Shown here: one piece after another, positions 2,963-55,266 of the stretch | Numbering within the stretch: position 1 is the first letter of the stretch | How the letters are laid out: every line of letters begins with the position of its first letter | Virus record (IMG/VR): IMGVR_UViG_3300048625_000166 | Length of the DNA: 64,000 nucleotides | Direction: 5' to 3' (one strand) | From: a virus | Lineage: Duplodnaviria; Heunggongvirae; Uroviricota; Caudoviricetes | Program-made: the position numbers and the translations under genes | Notes under the pieces: model-generated | Database searches by the model: none | What the model was told of the DNA's origin: nothing | Seen by the model: the letters and a program-made list of their open reading frames with translations, nothing else

Positions 2963-3523
2963 ATGAAAATCACAGAACTTGAAAAGAAAATGCCCCATCT
3001 GTATCTTGATATGGATGGGGTTCAAGCTGACTTCTTTGGTGCATGGGCTGACAAGCATAACGTTAGTCACTGGAGAGCTATCCAGGACAAAGAAGGTGAA
3101 ATCGAAGAACTGGCAAACAGTACACCAGAACAAGTCTACGATTTCTTCCGCAAGCTAAAACCACTACCAGGTGGACAACTAATTATCAATTGGTTGAAAG
3201 AAAACAAAATCCCCTTTACCGTACTGAGTGCTCCTCTACGGGGCCCATACGCCGATGTTAGTAAGCAAGCCAAACGTGATTGGTTAGATGAACATAATCC
3301 AGGTACTAGCGAAGATGCTATCTTTACTAGCGGCAAGCAAAAGTACGCAGTGACAGATGGTGTTGCTAATGTACTAGTTGACGATTTTGGACCCTATATC
3401 CAAAAATGGACAGATGCTGGCGGCATACCCGTCAAGCATGAGGATGAATCAGAAGTTGCAAGTGCCGCTGAGGACACTATTGAGAAACTAGAAAAGATTT
3501 ATTCTCCTTATCTAAAACGATAA
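2963..3523 (+). CDS. 5'(3')-deoxyribonucleotidase, HAD family (NT5C-like)
   Basis: LYLDMDGVQADF (DxDGV) motif, ILSAP-like LSAP, LVDD motif. Confidence 0.85.
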   Translation: MKITELEKKMPHLYLDMDGVQADFFGAWADKHNVSHWRAIQDKEGEIEELANSTPEQVYDFFRKLKPLPGGQLIINWLKENKIPFTVLSAPLRGPYADVSKQAKRDWLDEHNPGTSEDAIFTSGKQKYAVTDGVANVLVDDFGPYIQKWTDAGGIPVKHEDESEVASAAEDTIEKLEKIYSPYLKR

Positions 3524-8296: not shown

Positions 8297-9976
8297 ATGA
8301 TAATCGGATCAATAACAATAACATCTTTAGACTCAATCGGCAACAATGTTGCTGGCGATACTCTAATACCGGTTGTAAACATGGATGGTGTCCCAACGAC
8401 ACAAAAGATGACAGTGGCCAACTTAATGCAAGCTGGCATAGGAGCTAATCTAGGACCTGTTGCTAATGTGACAATCTCAGGTGGCACTAACGGATACGTA
8501 CTACAAACAGATGGTACTGGTAATTTAAGTTGGACTGCTCAGACTGGTGGGGGCGGTAACGGATCAGTGGGCGGTGCGAACACACAAGTTCAATTCAATG
8601 ATGCTGGTAATTTCGGCGGCGATACTGGATTTACATTTGATAAAACCACCGGTGCATTAGCAGTTACGAAACTAGATACAGCGACGGTGTATCACTTAAA
8701 TGGTGTAGTTGTAGAAAACGCTGATTTAACACACGGTGCAACTTCTGCACTAATTATTCCAACAAATGGAAACACAACTAATCCAGCACAGTTAAACAAC
8801 TTTTATGGAAACGTTATTGTCACTAGTGGTGTTGATGTTGACCATCTTAAGGTATGGACATTTAATGCTAATGGCGCAATCACTTTTCCTAATCAACCTA
8901 CTAATCAGCGAACTGGTAGTGGCGAAGCACTAATGTTTGCCAAAACAGGCACTCAGAAAATAATTGGCACACAAACAGGAACAGCAAATATACCAGTCGT
9001 AGAACGATTAGTAGTTGCAGGTGGTGATGGATTTGATACTGGTGAAGGTGGTGATATCTATCTATGGGCCGGCTCAAGTGGAGCCAACGGTGGCGGCGGC
9101 GGTGATATCAAAGTAGATGGTGGCACTGGCTACAATGGTAGCGAGGGAGGTACTATTAAGATTCGCGGTGGACAGAGTAATGACACTGGTAATGGTGCTG
9201 GATATGGCGGTTTTGTTGAAATCTATGCCGGTAGTGGCAAGTACGGTGCACCAGTTGACATTCGTTCCGGTCAAGGTGACAGTCAAGCTAATAGTGCTGA
9301 TATCAGATTGAACACACCGTACGGCGGACAGTGGACGTTTGATAATTATGGCAACTTAACACTACCAAGTGGCGGCAAACTAGGCTATGCTGGCATGGGA
9401 TGGACAGGTCTGCATGGTGCTAATACTGGGACTCCGTTGGAAGTAACGGCATACACTAATACTGGAAATACTTCTTCACAACTATTCCTTAATAATAATG
9501 GAAGTCTAGCACTCTTTACTTCCGATGAAGCTAACGCAAACTCTTATTCATGGAATTATAACAGCAATGGTAGTTTGACATTACCTAATATTGGTGTAGG
9601 TGTCGGATTAGATGAACAAACAGTAATTCAAAGTCAACGTAAGATTATACCACCAAATCGTTATAGCGCATTAATTGATGGTAATACACCAACTGTAGTT
9701 TATACTGCTAGTCAGGGTTCATTATCACTAAAAACAACACTTGTTGTCCAACATGCTGGTTTTGGATTAGAGATGTTTGATGTGTCCGCAGTCAGTGCGG
9801 GCGCTAATGTTATCTATAGTGTAAGCAATAGATTGAATGCTACTGGTCAACCTGATACTACAGCAGTAGTTGATTGGGATAGTACTCAACTAGCAATAAC
9901 ATTGACTGTTAATTCAGGCGCAACTACAAGTTGGGTAACATACGATTCTACCGAATTCGGTATCGCAGTAGACTAA
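8297..9976 (+). CDS. Tail-fibre-like structural protein
   Basis: GGTNGYVLQTDGTGNLSW and GGANTQVQFNDAGNFGG fibre motifs; Gly-rich repeats. Confidence 0.65.
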   Translation: MIIGSITITSLDSIGNNVAGDTLIPVVNMDGVPTTQKMTVANLMQAGIGANLGPVANVTISGGTNGYVLQTDGTGNLSWTAQTGGGGNGSVGGANTQVQFNDAGNFGGDTGFTFDKTTGALAVTKLDTATVYHLNGVVVENADLTHGATSALIIPTNGNTTNPAQLNNFYGNVIVTSGVDVDHLKVWTFNANGAITFPNQPTNQRTGSGEALMFAKTGTQKIIGTQTGTANIPVVERLVVAGGDGFDTGEGGDIYLWAGSSGANGGGGGDIKVDGGTGYNGSEGGTIKIRGGQSNDTGNGAGYGGFVEIYAGSGKYGAPVDIRSGQGDSQANSADIRLNTPYGGQWTFDNYGNLTLPSGGKLGYAGMGWTGLHGANTGTPLEVTAYTNTGNTSSQLFLNNNGSLALFTSDEANANSYSWNYNSNGSLTLPNIGVGVGLDEQTVIQSQRKIIPPNRYSALIDGNTPTVVYTASQGSLSLKTTLVVQHAGFGLEMFDVSAVSAGANVIYSVSNRLNATGQPDTTAVVDWDSTQLAITLTVNSGATTSWVTYDSTEFGIAVD

Positions 9977-10055: not shown

Positions 10056-11578
10056 GCTTTCTTTGGGGTCTTCATCTGAGACAACATGTGTTCAGCGTAC
10101 TTATGCATACACATCACTGGAATATTGTCCCAGTATTCTTCTAGATAAAATGGACAACTACCGATCCACTGATTTGTGTCAATGTAATGTTTCAGTTCAC
10201 GTAAATCTTCATCCCGTGTAGGATCAAAAAGCCGACGATTACTGACCGCATTAAGTAGAGAATATCGCATGGTTAGCTATCCATTTCCATTGAGTTGTAT
10301 TCTTTAACAACATCAAGTACTTCTTCCTCTGTGTTACAGATAATTTTACAGTTCTTCCATTCACTGTCGTCATCGCGGCCGCCAACTTCGACCATCCAAC
10401 CATTGTCGTAACGATTGATTGTAATTGATTCGTTTACTTTTGCTAGTTTGCCTAGTTTATTTGCCATTGTTACTTCTCCTTAAAACTTAATGATATCAAA
10501 TAACTCAGAGTGAGTCAACTATTTGTTTACCATTAACCTGGAATAGCACTCTCAGACATAAGAAGACGACCGTACTGTGCTTTTGCCATCTGCACAGCTT
10601 GATGGGGATTATCAGCACGAATCATCACACGACCAAAGCCTGCACCAGGTTCGTCTTTGTATTTTACCATCACATAATATGTGTTCATTTTACAACTCCA
10701 GTTAAAGTGAATTTACCAAGTGCTTCTTTTGCGTCGAACAAGTTTTCAACATCATCTAAAATCTCGGCAGTCTGTTGAATGAGTTCAGTTCGTGCCATTC
10801 TGATCAATTCGATGGCATACTGTGCATCATCATCGCTGATTGTAGCATACCAATTCTCAAATTGTTGAGGCGACAGTGACATGATAAACAAATAATTATC
10901 GCGGTCATGTTTGTTCATTATACGACTCCAGCTTCCTTTGTGTAATCAAGATCGAGTTTGATGTGACCATATCCATTCTTTATCAGATTGGCAGTCACTC
11001 GTGAAGATGCCATTCGCTTCATCCAAACAGTTGTATGGACACCTCATTTAGTTTCTCGACCAGTTACTCTAGTGCCGTTGATGTAAACAGCACCCAGATT
11101 GGTGACTTCTACGTTAACTCGTTTGGATCGCATTATGCAACCTCGTATGATTTGTTCCACTGGCCGATGTTCACATCAACATACCAGCCCACATCGAAGT
11201 AATCTGATTGAATGTCCGAGTTGTTGTGATTGCCGTTGTTCATAGCAGTCATGACTTCTTGCAAGAACGTCAATGCTTTGCCATCGAAGTGGTCGTGATA
11301 CCAGTAAGGGTTAACTTGAATAGAACCTTCTGCCTTACGGAAGTTTTGTGGCTCAGCCATGTAACGAGGAGTACGGCTTACAGTACTGTTAAAGTTATCG
11401 ATAAAGTCGATAGAACCAGACTTGATGTTCAACACCAGGGTAGAGTGATTACGAACAGCAAGAGTGCCTTTGACGTTGTACTTTTTCAAGATAGCCTTGA
11501 CGACTGGTGCGATTTCTGCTTTGTGATCTTGAGACATGTAAGCCATTTTGTTTCTCCGGTTTGTTTGTTGATGAATGA

Positions 11579-35862: not shown

Positions 35863-37439
35863 TTTGTTGTCTTTCTTAAACTTTTCTCAAACCATTCAGT
35901 TAGGTATGAGTTTTGACTAGTAACATTGTCCTCGTAGAACTCTTGTTCTGCGGCAACACGAATCATAGTGTATAACTCAGTGATGCGTTGTGGATGATCG
36001 AATCCTTGACGCACTTGCTTACGAAATACGCGAGTCAAGAACCAACGTTCAAATTTTGTCATACGTATTCCTTATTCAAACGTTCACGTGCGGCACTTGC
36101 GAATTCGCTGATGTTACCACACTTATCTTCCCAACGCAACAGATTTCGACAAGTGTAACCAATGTCACGCTTATTGTAGCAAACTGCTTCCTGATTTACT
36201 TCACCATTAACCAACACACGGCAGTGATAGTTGCCATTGATATTGCGAACAGTTACTTCATGTTCTACTGCACCAACGAGACAACGCTGGATGCGAATGA
36301 GTTGTTTATATCGTTCCATGTTATTCTCCAATGTACTCACGAACCCATTCAAACTTAGCTTCGCTAGCTTTGACCCATTTGAATTGTTCACGGCGTCTGT
36401 TAATCTTGTCAAAGTCGAAACATATAAAGATCCAACCTTTGTCCTCTGAGAACATGACGGTATCTTGGACTTTGACAATCTGTACGATTTTGTCTTTCAT
36501 CTTTGCTACAATCATCATTATGTTCTCCGGTTAATGCATGTATTATATAACCAATTCCATTTAATGTCAACCGAATCTTGCTTTGTCAGGAAAGAGTCGT
36601 CTTGCATCAATTCTAGCCTGTAGATAAGTTTCTACCACTTGAGTATCCATTTTCTTAAATCCAGATTTAAGCAAAAAGAATAATTCATCCTTCTCAGACT
36701 CTACAGTAACTGCGTGTACATCACCTTCGCTGATTTTGGCAACTGAGTTGCAAATAAATGTTATCTGCACTCCCAGTTCTCGTGTTAACACATCAGGTCC
36801 AGTCATGTCACCTGGGACATAATCATACTGATAGGTATTAGGAACGTCAACGTAGAATACGTAGCTCATGTGCGTTCTCGTTGTACTCGGCCTATACGTG
36901 CTGACTTGTTCCAGTCATACTTTACACCGTCAGGAGTCTTACCGTCTACAACAGAGTCAACTCCAAACATACCCACGATTTCAAAGTCCGGACCTGTGAT
37001 AGTCACAAACTCGTTCATCTTCTTTGCGTACTTCATAGCTTCGTCCAACGACAAAACTTCATGTTCTACACTCTTACCTTTTACTTTATACATTAAAGTC
37101 ATTTAAACTTATCCTTTTCAATCCATACTTGTTTGATATTTCTATGTGATCGGCAATTGCCTCTTTCTTTGTTTTATATCGTCCTAACACCGCACTCTCA
37201 CCATTACCATAAAAGATACAACTTTCATATGGGGCATACTTATACAAGTCGCCATCTAATTCAACTGTGCTTAGTGAGATATCAGCTGGGAACATCCAAA
37301 CATGATCATCGCTTACAATTTGCCAACGCTTGCTATGCATACTATTAAGTGTCACCAAGTTGTTGCGGACTACGCTTAGGGATGATAAGTCCGGATTCAA
37401 GTTCGATTCCATTAATTGTATGAGGCTCGTTTTCGTCAT
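35859..37439 (-). other. Run of small hypothetical CDS (35859-36062, about 36059-36318, 36321-36518, 36567-36869, 36866-37102, 37086-37439)
   Basis: Packed ORFs; promoter at 36542-36570. Confidence 0.55.
36542..36570 (-). promoter_or_regulatory. Early sigma70-type promoter
   Basis: TTGACA-17-TATAAT with GGAATTGG in the spacer. Confidence 0.75.
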
Positions 37440-37851
37440 AAGTCCATCCCAATGCTTTCATCATCTTGTGCTTTACTAGCAAGTTAGGACTGCGAAACAC
37501 TTCTGTGTCTTGAAATCCCATCATTACGCCAATCTCACAAACTGCGCCACTACGACACACACCGGCATGACAATGAACAATCACGTTCATGTGATTTTCT
37601 TGTGCATGTTGTAGCAATCGAACTAGTTCATCGGCTTGCTCTTGACTGCATCTCCATGCTTCGTCAAGTGAGTAATCATTTGCTTCAATATCAAGAAACT
37701 CAAACTGATGAACTTCTTTGAATTTGTACAAGGGAGTAGGAAATTCATAAGCAGGATCAACAATTTGAATCAGCATTGCATTGTCGCCAGGGTTGATATG
37801 AAACCCTTTCTTGATATCACTGAGTGATACGTTTTGAATCCACATTGTCAA
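37345..37851 (-). CDS. CX5R (dual-specificity/tyrosine) phosphatase-fold protein
   Basis: VHCHAGVCRSGAV, preceded by FLDIE acid loop. Confidence 0.85.
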   Translation of the reverse strand: MTMWIQNVSLSDIKKGFHINPGDNAMLIQIVDPAYEFPTPLYKFKEVHQFEFLDIEANDYSLDEAWRCSQEQADELVRLLQHAQENHMNVIVHCHAGVCRSGAVCEIGVMMGFQDTEVFRSPNLLVKHKMMKALGWTYDENEPHTINGIELESGLIIPKRSPQQLGDT

Positions 37852-38276
37852 TCCTCTCGAAACATTTTAATCATGGGTCCGTCAAGATAATCTCGACCTG
37901 GATCCATGTCACTGTAAACAGTCTTACTACCAAACTTCTTTTTCAATCGTTCATATTCAGCTAGTTCTTTGGCTTCTTTCGCCGCCTTGTCGGCTTTGTT
38001 TTTTGCTTTAGTTTTAGCTTCAACTGCGAGTCGTGCGTTATATTCTTTGTCAGTTTCTTCACGGCGTTCACGCAACTTTAATTCTTTGCCACCATCATAG
38101 CCGTAGTGTTCGATATCGAAATACACATCACGATTGCCCATTTCTTCTCGGAGTGCCTTCATGCGTTCGATGATTTCCTCAGGAGTTCTACCGTCAAACT
38201 CACAGAAGTCAACATACTCATTTGCTTCAACATCTAAAATTTTACGTTTGCTCATATTATCTCCAAAGTAAATCAA
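37848..38276 (-). CDS. Hypothetical protein
   Basis: 142-aa ORF. Confidence 0.6.
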   Translation of the reverse strand: MIYFGDNMSKRKILDVEANEYVDFCEFDGRTPEEIIERMKALREEMGNRDVYFDIEHYGYDGGKELKLRERREETDKEYNARLAVEAKTKAKNKADKAAKEAKELAEYERLKKKFGSKTVYSDMDPGRDYLDGPMIKMFRED

Positions 38277-38928
38277 AGTTGCCAGCTAGTACTTTAGTAG
38301 CATTAGCAACTTTACCTGTTAAGTGATCTTGAACTTTATCATCTTGGAAACGATATGTGCGAATCTTGTCACCGCGCATGCCAGAACCAACCTGAGTCTT
38401 TCTATCACTAGCTATTTCGTTATTGTACATCATTTGGTTATTGCTGTCAACACGTTCTTGTATTGCACTCAATGCTTCGTTATAGCTATTCTCACGGCTA
38501 CGACATTGAGCCGTTGCAACTACGCCGCTTGGGATGTGCGTGATTCTGCAACTGTTTTGATGCTTGTTACGATGTTGACCACCTGCACCAGTGCCACTAT
38601 ACCATTCGATTCGTAAATCTTTTTGTTGTATAGTTGTTGTGATTTTAGCAGGATCGATAACGGCAACTGTCACTGTGCTTGTATGCACTCGACCTTTGCG
38701 TTCTGTTGGCGGTACACGTTGTATTCTGTGTCCACCTGGCTCGTTGTATAAGCCGGATAAATCAGTACCCTCTATCTCTAGATGGATCTCGCCTTGATGC
38801 TCATTTATCAGGCGGGTAGTTCAGCCGAGCTTGGAAGCCATGCGAATATAAGACTTCGCTAAATCTTTTACAAACAACTTACTGTCATCGCCACCTTCTG
38901 CGGCTCTAATCTCAATTACACGTTTCAT
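38257..38928 (-). CDS. Class I peptide chain release factor (RF1-like, lacking domain 1) with an in-frame UGA at codon 36
   Basis: AAGGAG RBS; IEIRAAEGGDDSKLFVKDL...KLG*TTRL...EPGGHRIQRVPPTERKGRVHTS...GAGGQHRNK...RTYRF in one 224-codon frame. Confidence 0.85.
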
Positions 38929-39393: not shown

Positions 39394-40815
39394 TTACGAC
39401 AAGTCGTAACGTGTCTTCATCACTGTCTTCAACATGACGGCTTCTGGTGTGAAGTCTTCCAAGTCGTTAGACAATACAGAAGTTGCTAGTGCTGGGCTAA
39501 AGCCTGACACTAGTGCAGTACCACTCTTATCGAATGACACTGGTGTGTTACCGTAACTTGCGTTCAAGTTCCAGAAGACAACTTTTGGAAGTGCGTAGCC
39601 TGCGGCTTCGTACTTACGTGCGATCATTTGCATCGCGGTGTCGTCATGCTTAACACATTGGTTAAATTGCATGTCTGAGAAGATAACAAGAGTTTCAGGC
39701 ATTTCTGCTTGTGGAACACTGTTTTCTGTCGCAGTCTTCAGGATCTTTTCAAACGCCTTGTGAAGGTCTGTACTCATATCCCAGTTAGACTTGACCATTT
39801 GGTCAATCTTTTGGTTGATGTTACCCTTTAGGTGCATCAATTCTGGCTTGCTTGAGAAGGTCAAGAAGGTATCTTTGAACTTACCCTTGTTCTTATCAGC
39901 AAAGTACAAACCTAGGCTAACAGCAACTTCCATGCAAGACAGGTTGCTCTTAGAGCCATGACCACCTGCTGGACAAGACATTGAACCAGAAACGTCAACC
40001 AGAGGAAGAACGTTTGCATCGCCAACGTAGTTAGGCATTGCTTCCCATTGCTTTTGGATCAAGTCAGTTTCAGTCTTGTTAAACTGCATCCAACCACCAA
40101 TACGACCCTTCAGTACGTCATATGGGAACACTGCGCCTGCGTTAACCTTAACACCAGCTTCGCCCTTAACGAGCTTAGTTACATATTCAGCGTATGTAGT
40201 ACCATGACGGCCAAACGCTTTCTTGTAACGTGCATGTGCCACTGAAGGAACATGTGAGTAGTTGATGTTATCCCAATTTTGGGCACACATTTGTGTTTCA
40301 ACAACATTAGTAAGGCCGACTAGGCTCTTACGATATTGTTTAGGGGTCATTCCGAAGAATTGACGGATTTCACGTGCTACTTCACCTTTACGTGGAGTCC
40401 ACTTAGCCGCAAGACCGTTACCTGCACGTAGTGCATCGCCGAGCATAGTGTATGCCTTGGCCTTCACAGGCTGAGTCTTAAACACTAGCAAGTCGTCGTA
40501 ACGACCCAATTCTGGAATCTTAGCCATCAAACGCATTGCGTCTTCTGGGTTAGTCTTTTCCAAGTGAACGAGGATGTCTCGGAAGACTTGACGTTCACCT
40601 GAACCACCACGTGCATCACGTGCCCATTGAGCGATACGCAATGCAAGATCAGAGTTCTCTACATAAGCCGCTGTGAAAGCCGGCACGATGTTTTTACCAC
40701 GGCTTGCACCGATGTTGTAAAACAAATCAACACATGCGTTAGCACTTGATTTGCGAGCCTTCATACCATTGGTGGTACGAGTTGATTGATTCTTAACTGC
40801 TTCTGCGAATTGCAT
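39394..40815 (-). CDS. DUF2828-type helical plus vWA protein (Ro60/TROVE-like architecture)
   Basis: WARDARGGSGER, PELGRYDDL, LAAKW.P; MIDAS LVDVSGSM, TFS, IFSDMQF, VFWNL. Confidence 0.8.
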   Translation of the reverse strand: MQFAEAVKNQSTRTTNGMKARKSSANACVDLFYNIGASRGKNIVPAFTAAYVENSDLALRIAQWARDARGGSGERQVFRDILVHLEKTNPEDAMRLMAKIPELGRYDDLLVFKTQPVKAKAYTMLGDALRAGNGLAAKWTPRKGEVAREIRQFFGMTPKQYRKSLVGLTNVVETQMCAQNWDNINYSHVPSVAHARYKKAFGRHGTTYAEYVTKLVKGEAGVKVNAGAVFPYDVLKGRIGGWMQFNKTETDLIQKQWEAMPNYVGDANVLPLVDVSGSMSCPAGGHGSKSNLSCMEVAVSLGLYFADKNKGKFKDTFLTFSSKPELMHLKGNINQKIDQMVKSNWDMSTDLHKAFEKILKTATENSVPQAEMPETLVIFSDMQFNQCVKHDDTAMQMIARKYEAAGYALPKVVFWNLNASYGNTPVSFDKSGTALVSGFSPALATSVLSNDLEDFTPEAVMLKTVMKTRYDLS

Positions 40816-40842
40816 AGTAACTCCTTTCTATGTGTGTTATGC

Positions 40843-40908
40843 AACAGGATGCGCTTTTAGTTTCATCTATGAATTGAAATTTTAAAGTTTGCTGAATGCA
40901 TCCTAAAA
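40843..40908 (-). ncRNA. Y-like RNA A1 (RGGWT-N3-TN-CAGCA family), in the leader of the vWA gene
   Basis: AGGATGCATTCAGCAA...GCGCATCCTG; internal hairpin TTTCA-ATTCATAGA-TGAAA. Confidence 0.7.
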
Positions 40909-40913
40909 CTTGA

Positions 40914-40941
40914 TTGTACTACAGTAGTCATTGTATGTCAA
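40914..40941 (-). promoter_or_regulatory. sigma70-type promoter for A1 and the vWA gene
   Basis: TTGACA-17-TACAAT. Confidence 0.7.
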
Positions 40942-40960
40942 CTGTAGTTCGAAAAATAAA

Positions 40961-41114
40961 ACAGGATCGTTGTTGACTGCTTTTTGAATAGGGCCATCAC
41001 TCCTATTGCGATAGATGCATTTCAATAACTACCTTCAAAGTCCGTAGACTCCAGTAGTTACCATGCGATCCATCAGTTCCAATAAAGTAAATTATTGCTG
41101 TACCGATCCTAAAA
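40961..41114 (-). ncRNA. Y-like RNA A2
   Basis: AGGATCGGTACAGCAA...AACGATCCTG enclosing about 125 nt of hairpins. Confidence 0.65.
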
Positions 41115-41119
41115 ATAAA

Positions 41120-41370
41120 CGGGATGTTTGAACGTAGTTTATTTTATTGTCTGGTTGAGTCTAACTCACCTTTGCAGGACTTACGTTCCTCAACCATATC
41201 AACAATTCATGTTGACTATCTAGTAATTGAGTCTGCTACTAGCAACATAGAATGTCTTTCCATTCTGTCGTCTATTCCCTGAATGCTTAGTTGCCTAAGA
41301 GTATTGCTACTGTCTCCCGACCACCTTCTATAGCTGATAGTTTGATTTTTAAATGCTGAACACATCCCAG
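41120..41370 (-). ncRNA. Y-like RNA A3
   Basis: GGGATGTGTTCAGCAT...AAACATCCCG enclosing about 220 nt; TACAAT -10 box just upstream. Confidence 0.65.
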
Positions 41371-41427: not shown

Positions 41428-42561
41428 CTATCGTAAATTAATTTTTACGTTAGGGTCTAATGTGATGCTAGACCAATTCTTGTTGAAATTGCCCCATATA
41501 TCTTTCTCATTCTTGTAATCAGAAAGCAATGATAGCAATTGTGGATTGAATCGCTCAACTATCTTACGTTGAATAAGACCTGTTGTGGAATTCAGGGTGA
41601 TATCCTCTACTGACATTCTATGAATCGTTTGAGGGATTCGTATGTCTGCGAAAGGACTAAAAGTCATGTTGTTGTCAATGTGCCAATACTGATGATCATA
41701 AAAAATTGTTGAGTATAAAAACTTCATCAACTGTTCTTGGTCGTAGTATTCTTCCATTGAATCTTTGTACTTGGCTACAACATTGGGACGCTTCAAAAAC
41801 CAATAAAGATAATCAGTTTCTTTAGCTAGTTCGTCAATGTGTTTGCCTTGATAGTTTGCCAATGCGTTGATTGCTTCGCCGTCACGGTACTGATATGTCT
41901 CTGCATAGAAGCCAGTTGCATACCAATTTAATTCCGTAAATGCACTTGATACATCATATCCCCAGTGTTTACTGGATACAAAGTCTACCAAGTCACTATC
42001 GTACTCTCTAACTCTGCCCAAAAACTTATGTAACGTATCGTCACCTTGTTTAGGCACATATGCTGTTAGAGTATAGTCTTTTGTGTAGCTGTCTAGTACA
42101 GCCCATGTTGTTAGGGTATCCAGTCCTGCTGAATACAACACATTCATGCGTTCAATATTATTGTACTTGTAGAAGTTTCGTGTGTTTTCTAACAATATAT
42201 CGCCGATGATAATCGACGACTCTTCCAATGACAGTAGGGTATCATTGGGAATTTTAGGTTCATTGTATGTAACAATGCCGTAGCCTTCAGTGGCTAGGTT
42301 TGTTTGTTCACCATTGCGTTCATATAATGGAAAACCTCTGAGAACTGGGTGATACACTTTTTCGTCATGTATCACGCACCATTTCCCAGCTGGCTGATAG
42401 CCATCAAGTATTTCTAGTAGCGTATCTGCTAGAGTACAATCTACGCTATAACCCTTATACCAGATGTTATCTTTTTGTTTCCAGCCGCCATCTAAAAACA
42501 GGCGATCTGAAACTTTGTTCATCGCCTGTATTGGACAATTGGATCCGATGTAGAAAAACAT
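41428..42561 (-). CDS. PP-loop/asparagine-synthetase-like protein
   Basis: VLYSAGLDT resembles the SGGxDS loop; late SPFAD resembles the PFLD motif. Confidence 0.45.
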   Translation of the reverse strand: MFFYIGSNCPIQAMNKVSDRLFLDGGWKQKDNIWYKGYSVDCTLADTLLEILDGYQPAGKWCVIHDEKVYHPVLRGFPLYERNGEQTNLATEGYGIVTYNEPKIPNDTLLSLEESSIIIGDILLENTRNFYKYNNIERMNVLYSAGLDTLTTWAVLDSYTKDYTLTAYVPKQGDDTLHKFLGRVREYDSDLVDFVSSKHWGYDVSSAFTELNWYATGFYAETYQYRDGEAINALANYQGKHIDELAKETDYLYWFLKRPNVVAKYKDSMEEYYDQEQLMKFLYSTIFYDHQYWHIDNNMTFSPFADIRIPQTIHRMSVEDITLNSTTGLIQRKIVERFNPQLLSLLSDYKNEKDIWGNFNKNWSSITLDPNVKINLR

Positions 42562-43530: not shown

Positions 43531-43605
43531 TGGTGCGTGATAGAGGGATCGAACCTCTGACCTTCTCAATGTCACTGAGATATTCTACCGCTGAAATAAT
43601 CACGC
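43531..43605 (-). tRNA. tRNA-Val(GAC)
   Basis: Cloverleaf, loop GTGACAT, CCA. Confidence 0.9.
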
Positions 43606-43610
43606 ATTTT

Positions 43611-43730
43611 AACAGGTTCTCTTTTTTCGTGCTACCACTACACCAACGCGAAGACCAACTCGCGCCTGGGATTCGAACCCAGCCCCTCTTTTTTACAGAA
43701 AGATTATTAAGATTGCTGAAAAGAACCTAA
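43611..43730 (-). ncRNA. Y-like RNA A4 containing a circularly permuted tRNA-Tyr(GTA)
   Basis: AGGTTCTTTTCAGCAA...AGAACCTG; inside, in order: anticodon arm TCTTT-CTGTAAA-AAAGA, T arm CTGGG-TTCGAAT-CCCAG, loop-closed acceptor, D arm GTGT-AGTGGTA-GCAC. Confidence 0.8.
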
Positions 43731-43740
43731 TGGTCAAACT

Positions 43741-43816
43741 TGGTGGAGGTGACAGGACTCGAACCCGCTACCTATTGCTTGCAAAGCAACCGCTCTCCCA
43801 GGTGAGCTACACCCCC
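43741..43816 (-). tRNA. tRNA-Ala(TGC)
   Basis: G3:U70, loop TTTGCAA, CCA. Confidence 0.95.
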
Positions 43817-44320: not shown

Positions 44321-45198
44321 TGGAGCACTGAGAATACATGCTTACCGAGTAACACCTCAGACATTATTACAATCCTTGCGAGACTGCTTTCTTCTGACTT
44401 CCACTGCAACCTCTTGCGAGTATCACAGTCTGTTACCAACATCGCCGTTTTAAGTCAGGCATTAGACTTGACGCTGTATGCTATTCTACGCTTTCTATCC
44501 CGTTGACCTTTAGAGCCATTCACTACCGCTAAGTAGTTACGAAACTTCCTGCATAAACAGATTTCACCTTGCGAGTTACGTCTGACTGGATTATCTTGCG
44601 ACTCCAGTATTAGATGCTTTTCACATACAACCGAGACAGACTTTGCTTTTTTAATCGATAGAAGGGATCGAACCTTCAGCCGACTGCTTGAAAATGCAGT
44701 TGATCTACCATTGATCTATATCAACCTACTGTGATGTGCTGTCTCAGTTGCTTCATAATCTTTTGGACTACAAAATACAACACGCCACGTACCTTTTGTC
44801 TCGCGGACTACTCAGTCGTCTTTCACGATTAATGTCGGGTCTCGGCTTTCGCGTACCTCCATCAACCATTCAAACTGCATTACAACTCTTAGATGCGACT
44901 CCTCGAATCATAACACTACCCTTTCTCATACCAATTAACTGGACTGGTTTTGTCGTGAGGTCAGCACCACCTGTTACTCTCTAATGACTTGCGTTACCCT
45001 CGATATTATCTCAGGCGCTTAAGCCACTAATTCTTTCCACAACTTCCAGCGTCATTGTTATCACCACCGGTCTTATCAGTGATGAAACCCTCGCGGGTTT
45101 GAGCAGGCTTGCTTAGATGAACTATTTCTAGCGCGGGTCTGTAGGAGACTACCGCTTTGGGCCGATCACTCGGCTTATTCTAATGAGGCTAAGCCCCC
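44321..45198 (-). ncRNA. About 880-nt large structured RNA, GOLLD-like
   Basis: No credible CDS; many GNRA-capped hairpins (CTCGCAAGAG, CCGCGAGG, GCGAAAGC); 5' GGGGGC can pair with 3' GCTCC-A; located in a tRNA array; embedded tRNA-like domain. Confidence 0.6.
44653..44725 (-). ncRNA. tRNA-like domain embedded in the large RNA, 8-nt anticodon loop
   Basis: D arm GATC-AATGGTA-GATC, ACTGC-ATTTTCAA-GCAGT, T arm GAAGG-TTCGATC-CCTTC, no CCA. Confidence 0.7.
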
Positions 45199-48259: not shown

Positions 48260-48346
48260 TGGTGGATGCGGCTGGAGTTGAACCAGCAGTGCCTTTCGGG
48301 CGGCGGGTTTACAGCCCGCTGGGGTTACCAATTTTCCTACACATCC
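48260..48346 (-). tRNA. tRNA-Tyr(GTA)
   Basis: Loop CTGTAAA, long variable arm. Confidence 0.95.
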
Positions 48347-48347
48347 A

Positions 48348-48776
48348 TTATTTGTTTTTGCCACACCAAGTGTCAGTCTGTGAATGACAATTGGGACAGA
48401 GTAATCTTAAGTTTTTAAACTTGTGATTGTGATTATCGCCGTCTATGTGATCTAAATGTAGAGAAATTTCTTTTCCCATCCATTCTTCTAATCCACACGA
48501 CGAGCATTTGTTATCTAATATTTTTTCTTTTAACAAACGCTTTTTCAGTTTTAGTGTTTGATATGTAGGATGCAATCCTTCTAGAATTTCATTCAACTCT
48601 ATCTTCTTTGCACCACCACCTATCTTAAAATCTAAACCTAATCTTTTTGCTCTACGCCAAACTGTAACATCTGGCACATTAAAATAATGTGCTAACTTGC
48701 TCAAGACTGGCGTAATGTTATACTGTTCTATCAATTCAGTATCTGTAAACTTTTCTGTACTATGTTTTTGTTTCAT
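48348..48776 (-). CDS. HNH endonuclease with N-terminal HTH-like segment
   Basis: CSSC...LHLDHIDGDNHN...NLRLLCPNCH; ATAAATA 4 nt upstream. Confidence 0.85.
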   Translation of the reverse strand: MKQKHSTEKFTDTELIEQYNITPVLSKLAHYFNVPDVTVWRRAKRLGLDFKIGGGAKKIELNEILEGLHPTYQTLKLKKRLLKEKILDNKCSSCGLEEWMGKEISLHLDHIDGDNHNHKFKNLRLLCPNCHSQTDTWCGKNK

Positions 48777-50430: not shown

Positions 50431-50991
50431 CTACGAAAGCAAGATTCTAGAATGCTTTGGCACACCTGCCATCAAGTATTCCATTTGGTCTGCAAGAATT
50501 GTTCGTTGTTGCAGAATCATGTTTTCATAGTGGTTAGGTTCATAAGGAACATAAAGTAGTTCCATACGTGCTTCTTTCAAAGACTTATGACCCTTCTTAG
50601 AGTTACATTCCTTACATGCAGTAACTACGTTCATCCAAGTGTTGTCGCCGCCATGGTACCGAGGTACAATGTGGTCACGGCTTAGATTGTGATAGTTAGG
50701 GAAATGTCCACCACAGTATGCACAAACATACCGGTCACGACCAAACAATGTCTTGTTAGTCAATGCAACATGTGCGTGACGATGTGGGTTATAACCATGA
50801 CCCTTGATAGCAATAATAGAAGGAGATTCTAGGTAGCTTAGTGATCCGTCACGTTGTACGCCACCACGATACTTCGCAACAATTTCACCCATAGACCATG
50901 CTACGGAGTCAGTTGCGTGATATGCAATTGCGTCATCGTTTGAGATCCATTGCCGGGGAACTCCTGAAATATCTAGTGCTAGAACAGCCAT
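50431..50991 (-). CDS. HNH endonuclease (McrA/HNH_5-like)
   Basis: LFGRDRYVCAYCG...SRDHIVP...GGDNTWMNVVTACKECNSKKG. Confidence 0.9.
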   Translation of the reverse strand: MAVLALDISGVPRQWISNDDAIAYHATDSVAWSMGEIVAKYRGGVQRDGSLSYLESPSIIAIKGHGYNPHRHAHVALTNKTLFGRDRYVCAYCGGHFPNYHNLSRDHIVPRYHGGDNTWMNVVTACKECNSKKGHKSLKEARMELLYVPYEPNHYENMILQQRTILADQMEYLMAGVPKHSRILLS

Positions 50992-54027: not shown

Positions 54028-54567
54028 TCATTTTACAACATCTTGCCAACGAATGACTAGTGATTTGTCGTAATTTTGAGTTTTGTTCTTTCTGCGATTT
54101 TCCAATGCAGGAAGATACTGAAAGTTATCAGGATGATGTAGACCTCCGCATGCCAATGGCACAATATGGTCGACTTCGTATCCAGTTGGACAACTCTCGT
54201 AAATTTTTCGAATTAACTGACTATCAACGTAATCAGGTGTTGCGTTGTACTTTCTCGCTCTATAGTTTTGTACATTCAACACATTTAATTTTGCAGATTC
54301 GTCTTTCGTTTTTCTTCCAACTTTATCCCAATAAGCTATTCTAGCCTCTGATATTTTGGCAGAATGTTCTGCTGTTCTCGGCTTAAGTTTCTTTCCTTTG
54401 GTACTGGTTTGCTTAATTGAACCAGAAGCAATTCCTTCTTTAACCGAGTTGGCTATTTTTCGTTTCGTTTCATCGGATCTAACTCTAGAGTTAGCACACG
54501 GTCTACAACAATACTTTCCTGATCCATATGATCCATCATGTTCACTATTACATTTGAGGCAAAACAT
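54028..54567 (-). CDS. HNH endonuclease with zinc-finger and NUMOD3-like repeats
   Basis: CLKC...CCRPC; SDETKRKI; YEVDHIVPLACGGLHHPDN...ENRRK. Confidence 0.85.
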   Translation of the reverse strand: MFCLKCNSEHDGSYGSGKYCCRPCANSRVRSDETKRKIANSVKEGIASGSIKQTSTKGKKLKPRTAEHSAKISEARIAYWDKVGRKTKDESAKLNVLNVQNYRARKYNATPDYVDSQLIRKIYESCPTGYEVDHIVPLACGGLHHPDNFQYLPALENRRKNKTQNYDKSLVIRWQDVVK

Positions 54568-55022: not shown

Positions 55023-55029
55023 AAATAAA

Positions 55030-55145
55030 ACAGGATACATTCTTGACGAATGCTCTACCAATTGAGCTAATCTCGCATGAAGCGAAATGTTGGAATCGAA
55101 CCAACGACACATCGTTTGATGTAGTTTGCTGTATGTATCCTAAAA
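55030..55145 (-). ncRNA. Y-like RNA A6 containing a permuted tRNA (truncated anticodon arm)
   Basis: AGGATACATACAGCAA...ATGTATCCTG; ACATC-AAAC-GATGT, GTTGG-TTCGATT-CCAAC, ATTTCGC-TTCAT-GCGAGAT, GCTC-AATTGGTA-GAGC. Confidence 0.8.
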
Positions 55146-55146
55146 T

Positions 55147-55266
55147 TGGCGCCGCCGGAGGGATTCGAACCCCCATCTCTTCCTTGACATGGAATTTTTA
55201 TATGCTGAACGTACTCTGTACAGAGTCACTTTTTATAAGTGTCCTGATCCATTAGACGACAGCGGC
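55147..55266 (-). ncRNA. 120-nt tRNA-like RNA with about 45 nt inserted between D and anticodon arms
   Basis: GCCGCTG/CGGCGGC-G-CCA; T arm GGGGG-TTCGAAT-CCCTC; TTCC-ATGTCAA-GGAA (Asp GTC-like). Confidence 0.65.

Follow-up and report, generated by a model that had tools for sequence, protein, structure and literature searches.

A circularly permuted tRNA look-alike on a conserved RNA handle in a jumbo phage, a likely partner of a predicted Ro60-like ring protein

The tRNA array of a jumbo phage carries a conserved, structured RNA built like a circularly permuted tRNA, and we consider it likely that this look-alike serves as a partner of a phage-encoded, Ro60-like ring protein and does not decode. 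The RNA was found in a 64,000-nucleotide stretch of viral DNA (hereafter the window), which corresponds to bases 182881–246880 of a 364,247-bp IMG/VR virus record with direct terminal repeats. Its structure, its conservation and covariation, the hypervariability of its anticodon-like triplet, the Ro60 fold predicted for the protein and the co-occurrence of gene and RNA were all established computationally, and the conservation of this structured phage RNA goes far beyond chance. It is not a tyrosine tRNA, and it is probably not a tRNA precursor.

The array lies on the minus strand at approximately 42.8–58.0 kb of the window and holds 45 tRNA genes together with one GOLLD RNA. In its native order, the region 43606–43740 was not recognized as a tRNA (canonical family RF00005) by cmscan or ARAGORN. 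No Rfam family claimed the element either at gathering thresholds or up to E ≤ 10, where the matches were chance-level or sub-threshold and included no Y-RNA family. A match to tmRNA_permuted (RF04321, 19.1 bits) was rejected because it spans mostly the neighboring tRNA-Ala. A search for promoters and terminators on the minus strand between the flanking tRNAs gave no match. The GOLLD RNA (44325–44788, minus strand, 203.5 bits) contains a tRNA-like unit of its own at 44652–44726, in which ARAGORN reads a four-base anticodon (tttc), and homing-endonuclease genes of the HNH or endonuclease VII type are present among the tRNA genes (48348–48776, 50431–50991 and 54028–54567, minus strand).

All of the parts named in the original prediction were present on the minus strand, with the arms in the order it described. 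Read 5′ to 3′, the RNA consists of the handle, an anticodon-like hairpin, a 4-nt variable loop, the T arm, the acceptor, the D arm and the handle again (Table 1). The functional unit probably extends some 10 nt beyond the 5′ boundary that had been proposed, and its 5′ end was moved to 43740 because a motif in the leader appears to pair with the acceptor loop. The leader, 5′ of the handle, reads GUUUGACCAUU. A 7-nt linker separates the unpaired CAGCAAUC from the anticodon-like hairpin, and the tail GUUAAAAU, which begins with GUUA, follows the 3′ strand of the handle up to tRNA-Val; CCUGUU at the 3′ end of the handle is nearly invariant. The inner linkers have tRNA-like lengths (T to acceptor, 0 nt; positions 8–9, 2 nt; variable loop, 4 nt). 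Minimum free energy (MFE) folding recovered the handle, T, acceptor and D helices (−38.3 kcal/mol, z = −2.7, with 0/200 shuffles as good). The register that it assigned to the first hairpin (7 bp, loop GUAAAAA) was rejected: its cells are paired in only 53% of cases in distant relatives versus 83% for the register predicted originally, and in 75% versus 92% overall. In several relatives (L063 from about position 9393, and also L013, L005, L019 and L033), a ribosome-binding site and the ATG of a small open reading frame (MKAITFK...) lie within about 10 nt downstream of the element, and the 3′ tail would overlap the translation start region in these five.

Table 1. Coordinates of the element, its parts and associated genes in the window
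Feature	Position	Strand	Remarks
tRNA-Ala	43741–43816	minus	flanks the element
Element (permuted tRNA-like RNA)	43606–43740	minus	between tRNA-Ala and tRNA-Val, abutting both
Leader motif GACCA	43731–43735	minus	proposed pseudoknot strand; complementary to UGGUC of the acceptor loop
Handle helix, 5′ strand AGGUUCUUUU	43719–43728	minus	pairs with 43614–43623
Unpaired CAGCAAUC	43711–43718	minus	conserved CAGCAA(UC); presumed protein-recognition element of the handle
Anticodon-like arm UCUUU[CUGUAAA]AAAGA	43687–43703	minus	5-bp stem, 7-nt loop; triplet GUA at 43694–43696
Variable-loop equivalent GGGG	43683–43686	minus	4 nt; last base behaves as position 48
T arm CUGGG[UUCGAAU]CCCAG	43666–43682	minus	100% of cells paired, loop invariant; conservation partly a product of the search pattern used
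Acceptor GCGCGAG[UUGGUC]UUCGCGU	43646–43665	minus	7 bp, 6-nt loop at 43653–43658
Linker U8-G9 (UG)	43644–43645	minus	
D arm GUGU[AGUGGUA]GCAC	43629–43643	minus	compensatory change in 4/4 stem pairs
G26 equivalent, A-rich linker, handle 3′ strand and tail	43606–43628	minus	ends at the 5′ end of tRNA-Val
Handle helix, 3′ strand AAAGAGAACCU	43614–43623	minus	
tRNA-Val	43531–43605	minus	flanks the element
Three gene-proximal sibling handle RNAs	40839–41369	minus	pattern matches at 40889–40905, 41095–41111 and 41353–41369
DUF2828 + DUF7788 gene	39394–40815	minus	473 aa; Pfam; PHROG 850 'RNA-binding protein'

The conservation of the element was evaluated in viral and metagenomic sequences. BLAST against isolate phages identified a single homologue, at 122114–122237 of ON615601.1 in Synechococcus phage BUCT-ZZ01, which is unannotated and carries compensatory changes in the handle, acceptor and D stems; the remaining matches were to the flanking tRNAs. 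A pattern scan (UUCAGCAA, a gap and the T loop) yielded 22 and then 118 IMG/VR loci, as well as 120 metagenome loci. A perfect 6-bp handle was present in 120 unique elements, 91 of which also have the acceptor hairpin and the D arm. Among 27 close relatives, a count based on a MAFFT alignment showed 92.7% of cells paired versus 81.6% after shuffling, and changes on both sides at 16 pairs versus 3–5 with the partners slid. A covariance model built from these 27 sequences scored the window copy at 160 bits and was used to align 68 distinct homologues, in which 95.7% of cells are paired versus 70.7% after shuffling and 25/30 pairs show changes on both sides; this alignment is fitted to the model and leans towards structure, and the MAFFT-based count agrees in direction. 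Every helix is supported by compensatory changes in the 68 homologues from viral and metagenome contigs, the first hairpin included (5/5 pairs of the anticodon-like stem and 7/7 of the acceptor stem), and the seven core pairs of the handle are paired in 98.7% of cases, with changes on both sides in six of them.

The likeness to tRNA extends to the tertiary core. In a subfamily of 47 members, U8, A14, G18, G19 and the whole T loop are invariant, and A21 is nearly so. Positions 15 and 48, and likewise 26 and 44, are tertiary partners in tRNA. Position 15 covaries with position 48 in this RNA (A:U 35, G:G 17, G:C 9; mutual information 0.82 bits; 0/5000 permutations), and the bases that follow the D stem and the anticodon-like stem covary with each other (26/44; mutual information 0.58 bits; 0/5000 permutations), both tests being inflated by the relatedness of the sequences. 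Therefore, the first hairpin occupies the place of the anticodon arm and is followed by a 4-nt variable loop. Its loop is 7 nt long in 65/68 homologues; among these 65, U occupies loop position 2 in 64, a purine position 6 in 62 and A position 7 in 58, which is the signature of an anticodon loop. After de-permutation in silico, with 26 and 27 joined and the acceptor loop opened, ARAGORN called 64/68 homologues tRNA, the window copy being called tRNA-Tyr(gta). Helix covariation and ARAGORN thus bear out the proposal that a shared handle carries a complete, permuted cloverleaf whose chain is opened between 26 and 27. No tRNA part is missing, and the 3′ half precedes the 5′ half, as in a permuted tRNA gene. 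At 1879–1956 of L151, ARAGORN reports a 'tRNA-Cys(gca)' that lies within the homologous element (1863–2007), a case in which automatic annotation can mislabel such a mimic as a tRNA.

The handle is shared with RNAs beyond this element. The motif UAGG-N-UUCAGCAA occurs in eight copies on the minus strand of the window; the scan, at up to two mismatches, gave nine matches versus 1.2 expected, the ninth being on the plus strand at 3137. Within the 364-kb genome, the handle-RNA copies are confined to the region of the window. CAGCAA is invariant in 47/47 members of the subfamily and is common to seven other RNAs of the window. Three of the seven siblings near the element lie directly upstream of a DUF2828 gene, and the covariance model matched siblings at 40839–40925 and 40956–41131. 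Two other phages likewise have handle RNAs abutting the DUF2828 gene at its 5′ end; the window copy is 2.8 kb from the gene and not adjacent to it. The same layout, with the RNAs next to the protein gene, is found at rsr/Y-RNA loci (PMC4201824, PMC12135203). A second handle RNA, at 55025–55162 (minus strand), also bears a permuted tRNA-like cargo (T arm, closed acceptor stem and D arm), with a 4-bp stem and 4-nt loop (CAUC-AAAC-GAUG) and no anticodon loop in the place of the anticodon arm. A 377-aa open reading frame with no Pfam or PHROG match lies between the gene-proximal handle RNAs and the tRNA array (41428–42561, minus strand), and open reading frames with an RF-1 (peptide release factor) domain (38257–38688, minus strand) and a dual-specificity phosphatase domain (37345–37851, minus strand) lie downstream of the Ro60-like gene.

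The DUF2828/DUF7788 protein is predicted to form a Ro60-like ring plus a vWA domain. Using its AlphaFold model (pLDDT 88.4, pTM 0.87), a fold search against the PDB returned Ro60/TROVE proteins as all of the top 13 matches, over the full length (511–546 alignment columns); these included phage phiLo Ro60 (9KOP, E = 2.7e-9), Xenopus Ro (TM 0.60–0.62), Deinococcus Rsr and human Ro60, and isolated vWA domains ranked below them. Only the fold search showed Ro60: a sequence search of the protein against the PDB found nothing, and Pfam TROVE gave no sequence match. More than 6000 relatives of the protein were found, and the members of the DUF2828 family, which number thousands, carry no annotation beyond 'RNA-binding protein' or hypothetical. 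Of the phage records with this RNA, 9/10 have the gene, versus 0/14 control genomes, the controls not being a matched set of tRNA-rich phages without the RNA; the one negative record is a 39%-complete fragment. BUCT-ZZ01, a phage that infects Synechococcus elongatus PCC 7942, carries the DUF2828 gene as well as its RNA homologue and thus provides a cultured system for both. No Ro60-binding motif (GNCGAA; conserved bulged helix) was seen in the handle, and by inspection none occurs outside the T loop.

These data bear on whether the mimic could act without the Ro60-like protein. It might be a free decoy or inhibitor of a host tRNA nuclease or modifier, or a precursor folding or processing element whose handle serves stability or processing, and this would be consistent with its place inside the tRNA array, far from the gene, with an RNA-bearing record that showed no DUF2828 gene, though only 39% complete, and with an exposed loop whose conserved U33 and A37-A38 suit anticodon-loop enzymes. 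However, the handle sequence (UUCAGCAA, CCUGUU) is conserved far beyond what helix stability needs, the same handle is found on RNAs whose cargo is unrelated and which are grouped at the Ro60-like gene in this and other phages, and the gene accompanies the RNA in all but one of the ten records, so that we regard a protein-free role as rather unlikely and favor a look-alike that would work with the ring protein.

The label tRNA-Tyr, under which the RNA had been predicted, did not survive as an identity. The homologues carry 26 different triplets; ARAGORN read GUA in 17, GAA in 9, GGA in 6, GCA in 5 and others in the rest after de-permutation, and the close relatives alone have GUA, GAA, GCA, GGA, UAG, GCG, ACG and others. 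In the 47-member subfamily, position 35 has the highest entropy of any internal position (1.89 bits), whereas U33, A37 and A38 have 0.15 bits each. Between nearest neighbors, the triplet differs at 0.33 per site versus 0.078 at other unpaired and 0.081 at paired sites, so that it changes about four times faster than the rest of the RNA; L225 and L153 are identical outside the triplet, which is GCG in one and ACG in the other. No stable anticodon or amino-acid identity is therefore kept across the orthologues, as position 35 and the 26 triplets attest. Most variants keep C32-U33-G34-N35-A36-A37-A38, a type of loop found in UNY-reading tRNAs and in MiaA substrates. The identity of bacterial tRNA-Tyr depends on A73 and a long variable arm; the window RNA has U at the discriminator place, a 4-nt variable loop and no long variable arm. 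The same phage encodes a standard class II tRNA-Tyr at 48260–48346, which also has the loop CUGUAAA, and in L003, L020 and L188 a standard tRNA matching the triplet of the mimic is already present. The idea that the phage tRNA set has a gap which the mimic closes was rejected, since the window and these three phages each have a standard tRNA with the same anticodon; large tRNA arrays give such matches by chance, and the result shows only that the RNA is not needed for decoding.

Moreover, the acceptor end appears to be tied to the leader. Within the 47-member subfamily the acceptor loop UUGGUC hardly varies, and GACCA in the leader, 2–4 nt from the handle, is complementary to its UGGUC. Complementarity of leader and loop is kept at the same place with other sequences, as UACCU/AGGUA in BUCT-ZZ01 (L001), AUACCA/UGGUAU in L239, AUCCC/GGGAU in L151 and L163, and GACU/AGUC in L108, and other cargo types provide more examples. 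When each loop type was represented once, a leader formed a mean of 4.2 Watson–Crick pairs with its own loop versus 3.3 in cross pairs (0/10000 permutations); a stricter set gave p = 0.024, and the independent lineages behind this support are few in number. The leader was out of register in the MAFFT alignment, and custom scripts were used for the test. Leader pairing is absent from families with a tetraloop at the acceptor stem. The sequence complementarity suggests that the leader/acceptor-loop pseudoknot is likely real, though not proven, and if real it would bring the acceptor terminus next to the handle's outer end. The complementarity also argues against opening by RNase P and addition of CCA.

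The same observations weigh on a true circularly permuted or two-piece tRNA gene, from which the handle would be removed and 26 and 27 joined, or which would be processed by RNase P and receive CCA, its product decoding UAY or, in relatives, other codons. Such a gene would account for the complete cloverleaf, for its acceptance by ARAGORN after de-permutation and for a loop CUGUAAA identical to that of the phage's own tRNA-Tyr, and its 7-bp acceptor resembles that of the Mycobacterium smegmatis YrlA, an RNA with a 7-bp stem that RNase P cuts and to which CCA is added (PMC4201824). It would not account for a triplet that varies freely on a near-constant body, where identity elements therefore cannot track the triplet. 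In addition, no CCA is encoded, the discriminator place holds U with no long variable arm, the acceptor loop shows both conservation and complementarity to the leader, inspection of the handle found a simple, continuous helix of 7–10 bp and no bulge-helix-bulge, and four phages own a normal tRNA with the same anticodon; no splicing endonuclease has been reported in bacteria (bioRxiv 10.1101/312249). We regard a permuted tRNA gene as very improbable, and the maturation into a real tRNA that the original prediction had entertained is unlikely, given the lack of an encoded CCA, the conserved, leader-pairing acceptor loop and the lack of a bulge-helix-bulge. Finally, a functionless, decayed or recombined tRNA remnant, present by chance in a tRNA-rich region, is virtually out of the question: tRNA arrays recombine readily, and the junction of a tRNA dimer can look like the T-acceptor-D order (PMC4201824), but the conservation pattern, with 68 distinct homologues, compensatory changes in every helix, invariant tertiary positions and acceptor strands that pair with each other and not with the neighboring tRNAs, refutes it as far as computation goes.

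We then compared the look-alike with known RNAs. YrlA RNAs 'resemble circularly permuted tRNAs', with the T-acceptor-D order and a closed acceptor stem (bioRxiv 10.1101/312249). Both RNAs have a terminal helix as protein-binding module (presumed here) and a tRNA-like module of T arm, closed acceptor and D arm with conserved tertiary residues; both are encoded with a ring-shaped protein of Ro60 fold (predicted here), have multiple copies at a locus and are known from phages. The original prediction had set the full anticodon arm of this RNA against YrlA RNAs, in which the Ro-binding stem takes its place. This contrast is fair for the solved YrlA structure (PDB 6CU1), which 'lacks the anticodon loop' and in which the anticodon stem, formed by the 5′ and 3′ strands, is continuous with the Ro60-binding helix (bioRxiv 10.1101/312249); in many YrlA RNAs, however, a 'V' stem-loop is found 5′ of T, which is topologically the same position (Chen et al., 2014, PMC4201824). 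This RNA has a closed, anticodon-shaped hairpin of 5 bp and 7 nt where YrlA has no anticodon loop, and its handle is set off by linkers of about 15 and 5 nt, whereas the YrlA stem runs into the Ro60-binding helix. Furthermore, the motif of the handle, UUCAGCAA ... CCUGUU, bears no relation to the GNCGAA motif of YrlA (GNCGAAN0-1G), the protein is DUF2828/DUF7788 and not Pfam TROVE, and the acceptor loop, unlike that of YrlA, is complementary to the leader. The topology is formally that of YrlA; its geometry, the signature of the loop and the covariation of 26 with 44 indicate a genuine equivalent of the anticodon arm.

Permuted tRNA genes occur in red and green algae and in one archaeon (Soma, 2007; Maruyama, 2010; Chan, 2011; as summarized in bioRxiv 10.1101/312249). 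As in those genes, the 3′ half comes first, a short linker joins the acceptor ends, and the 5′ and 3′ ends of the transcript pair together. The algal and archaeal genes have a bulge-helix-bulge, pass through a circular intermediate and give real tRNAs of fixed identity, in contrast to an RNA with no bulge-helix-bulge, a hypervariable triplet, no CCA, a break at 26/27 and a bacterial host. Two-piece tmRNA, which occurs in bacteria and phages, has a permuted tRNA-like domain as well, with the T arm and the 3′ acceptor strand preceding the 5′ acceptor strand. In tmRNA, cleavage frees a CCA end, alanine is attached and the RNA contains a reading frame for a tag; none of these features was seen in this RNA.

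The handle, and the handle only, resembles the Class I RNAs of dictyostelid amoebae (RF01414), whose signature comprises an AAG start, a covarying stem, an 11-nt motif and a CUGU end (Kjellin et al., 2021, PMC7919456). Both have a covarying 5′/3′ stem, an (A)AG start, ...ACAGCAA beside the 5′ strand and a conserved CUGU end, the C of which pairs with the 5′ G; in the phage handle, the signature reads UAG-GUUCU..., UUCAGCAA, ...AGAACC-UGU. Alignments to the Dicty_Class_I_RNA family scored 20.3 bits at 43613–43727 (minus strand) and 26.1 bits at 40845–40903 (minus strand), below the cut-off of 41.5, and cover the 5′/3′ stem, the ...CAGCAA motif and the CUG end. [quoted passage not shown] A shared origin of the two is a lead, not a result. 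A literature search covering DUF2828, permuted phage tRNA, and Ro60 with phage and anticodon found no description of the phage RNA.

We propose that the element is a non-coding RNA gene of about 120–135 nt, probably co-transcribed with the tRNAs of the array and probably released by processing of the flanking tRNA-Ala and tRNA-Val. It belongs to a large phage RNA family with a common handle, made up of the covarying terminal helix, the unpaired UUCAGCAA and the CCUGUU 3′ end, and by analogy with Y RNAs and Ro60 this handle may be the binding site for the DUF2828/DUF7788 ring protein. The cargo is a tRNA mimic in closed, circularly permuted form, which keeps all four arms and has a tRNA-like tertiary core. 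At its acceptor end it is capped by the loop that likely pairs with the 5′ leader beside the handle, which would leave the elbow and the anticodon-shaped loop exposed. Most likely, the tRNA look-alike would be presented on a Ro60-like particle, where it could recruit a tRNA-recognizing factor (a nuclease, modification or processing enzyme) or soak one up as a decoy, and it would not decode. Expression, processing, protein binding and the adaptor or decoy role are what we infer from the computed features.

A bolder extension is that handle RNAs are the display scaffolds of the Ro60-like particle, that the triplet of the displayed tRNA is under diversifying selection, so that a decoy or sensor is re-aimed at whichever host tRNA is attacked, and that the Class I handle is an ancient cross-domain module. 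We judge this improbable as a whole, and the fast change of the triplet is equally compatible with the absence of any constraint. If the triplet is indeed diversifying, the decoy or sensor would follow the host tRNA hit by anticodon nucleases or other tRNA-directed immunity, and the Class I handle signature in Dictyostelium would then point to an ancient RNA–protein module shared across domains. Given the fast-evolving triplet, a role in tRNA conflict is the most interesting possibility.

Three features are new here: a full anticodon-shaped arm with a triplet that evolves faster than any other part of the tightly conserved RNA, an acceptor end proposed to be tied back to the handle, and a presumed partner family, DUF2828, with a predicted Ro60 fold and no detectable sequence similarity to TROVE. 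To our knowledge, the described tRNA-mimic Y RNAs have no anticodon loop, and we know of no identified effector for them. If the proposed reading holds, the Ro60/Y-RNA world would gain a large, uncharted phage branch, together with a clue to the purpose of tRNA-mimic Y RNAs, possibly phage–host tRNA conflict.

Two further genes were observed in BUCT-ZZ01 (L001, ON615601.1), in the array that holds the homologous mimic. One is a tRNA with the anticodon CTA at 9837–9912, of the amber-suppressor type and labeled 'Pyl' by ARAGORN, and the other is a tmRNA at 10959–11377.
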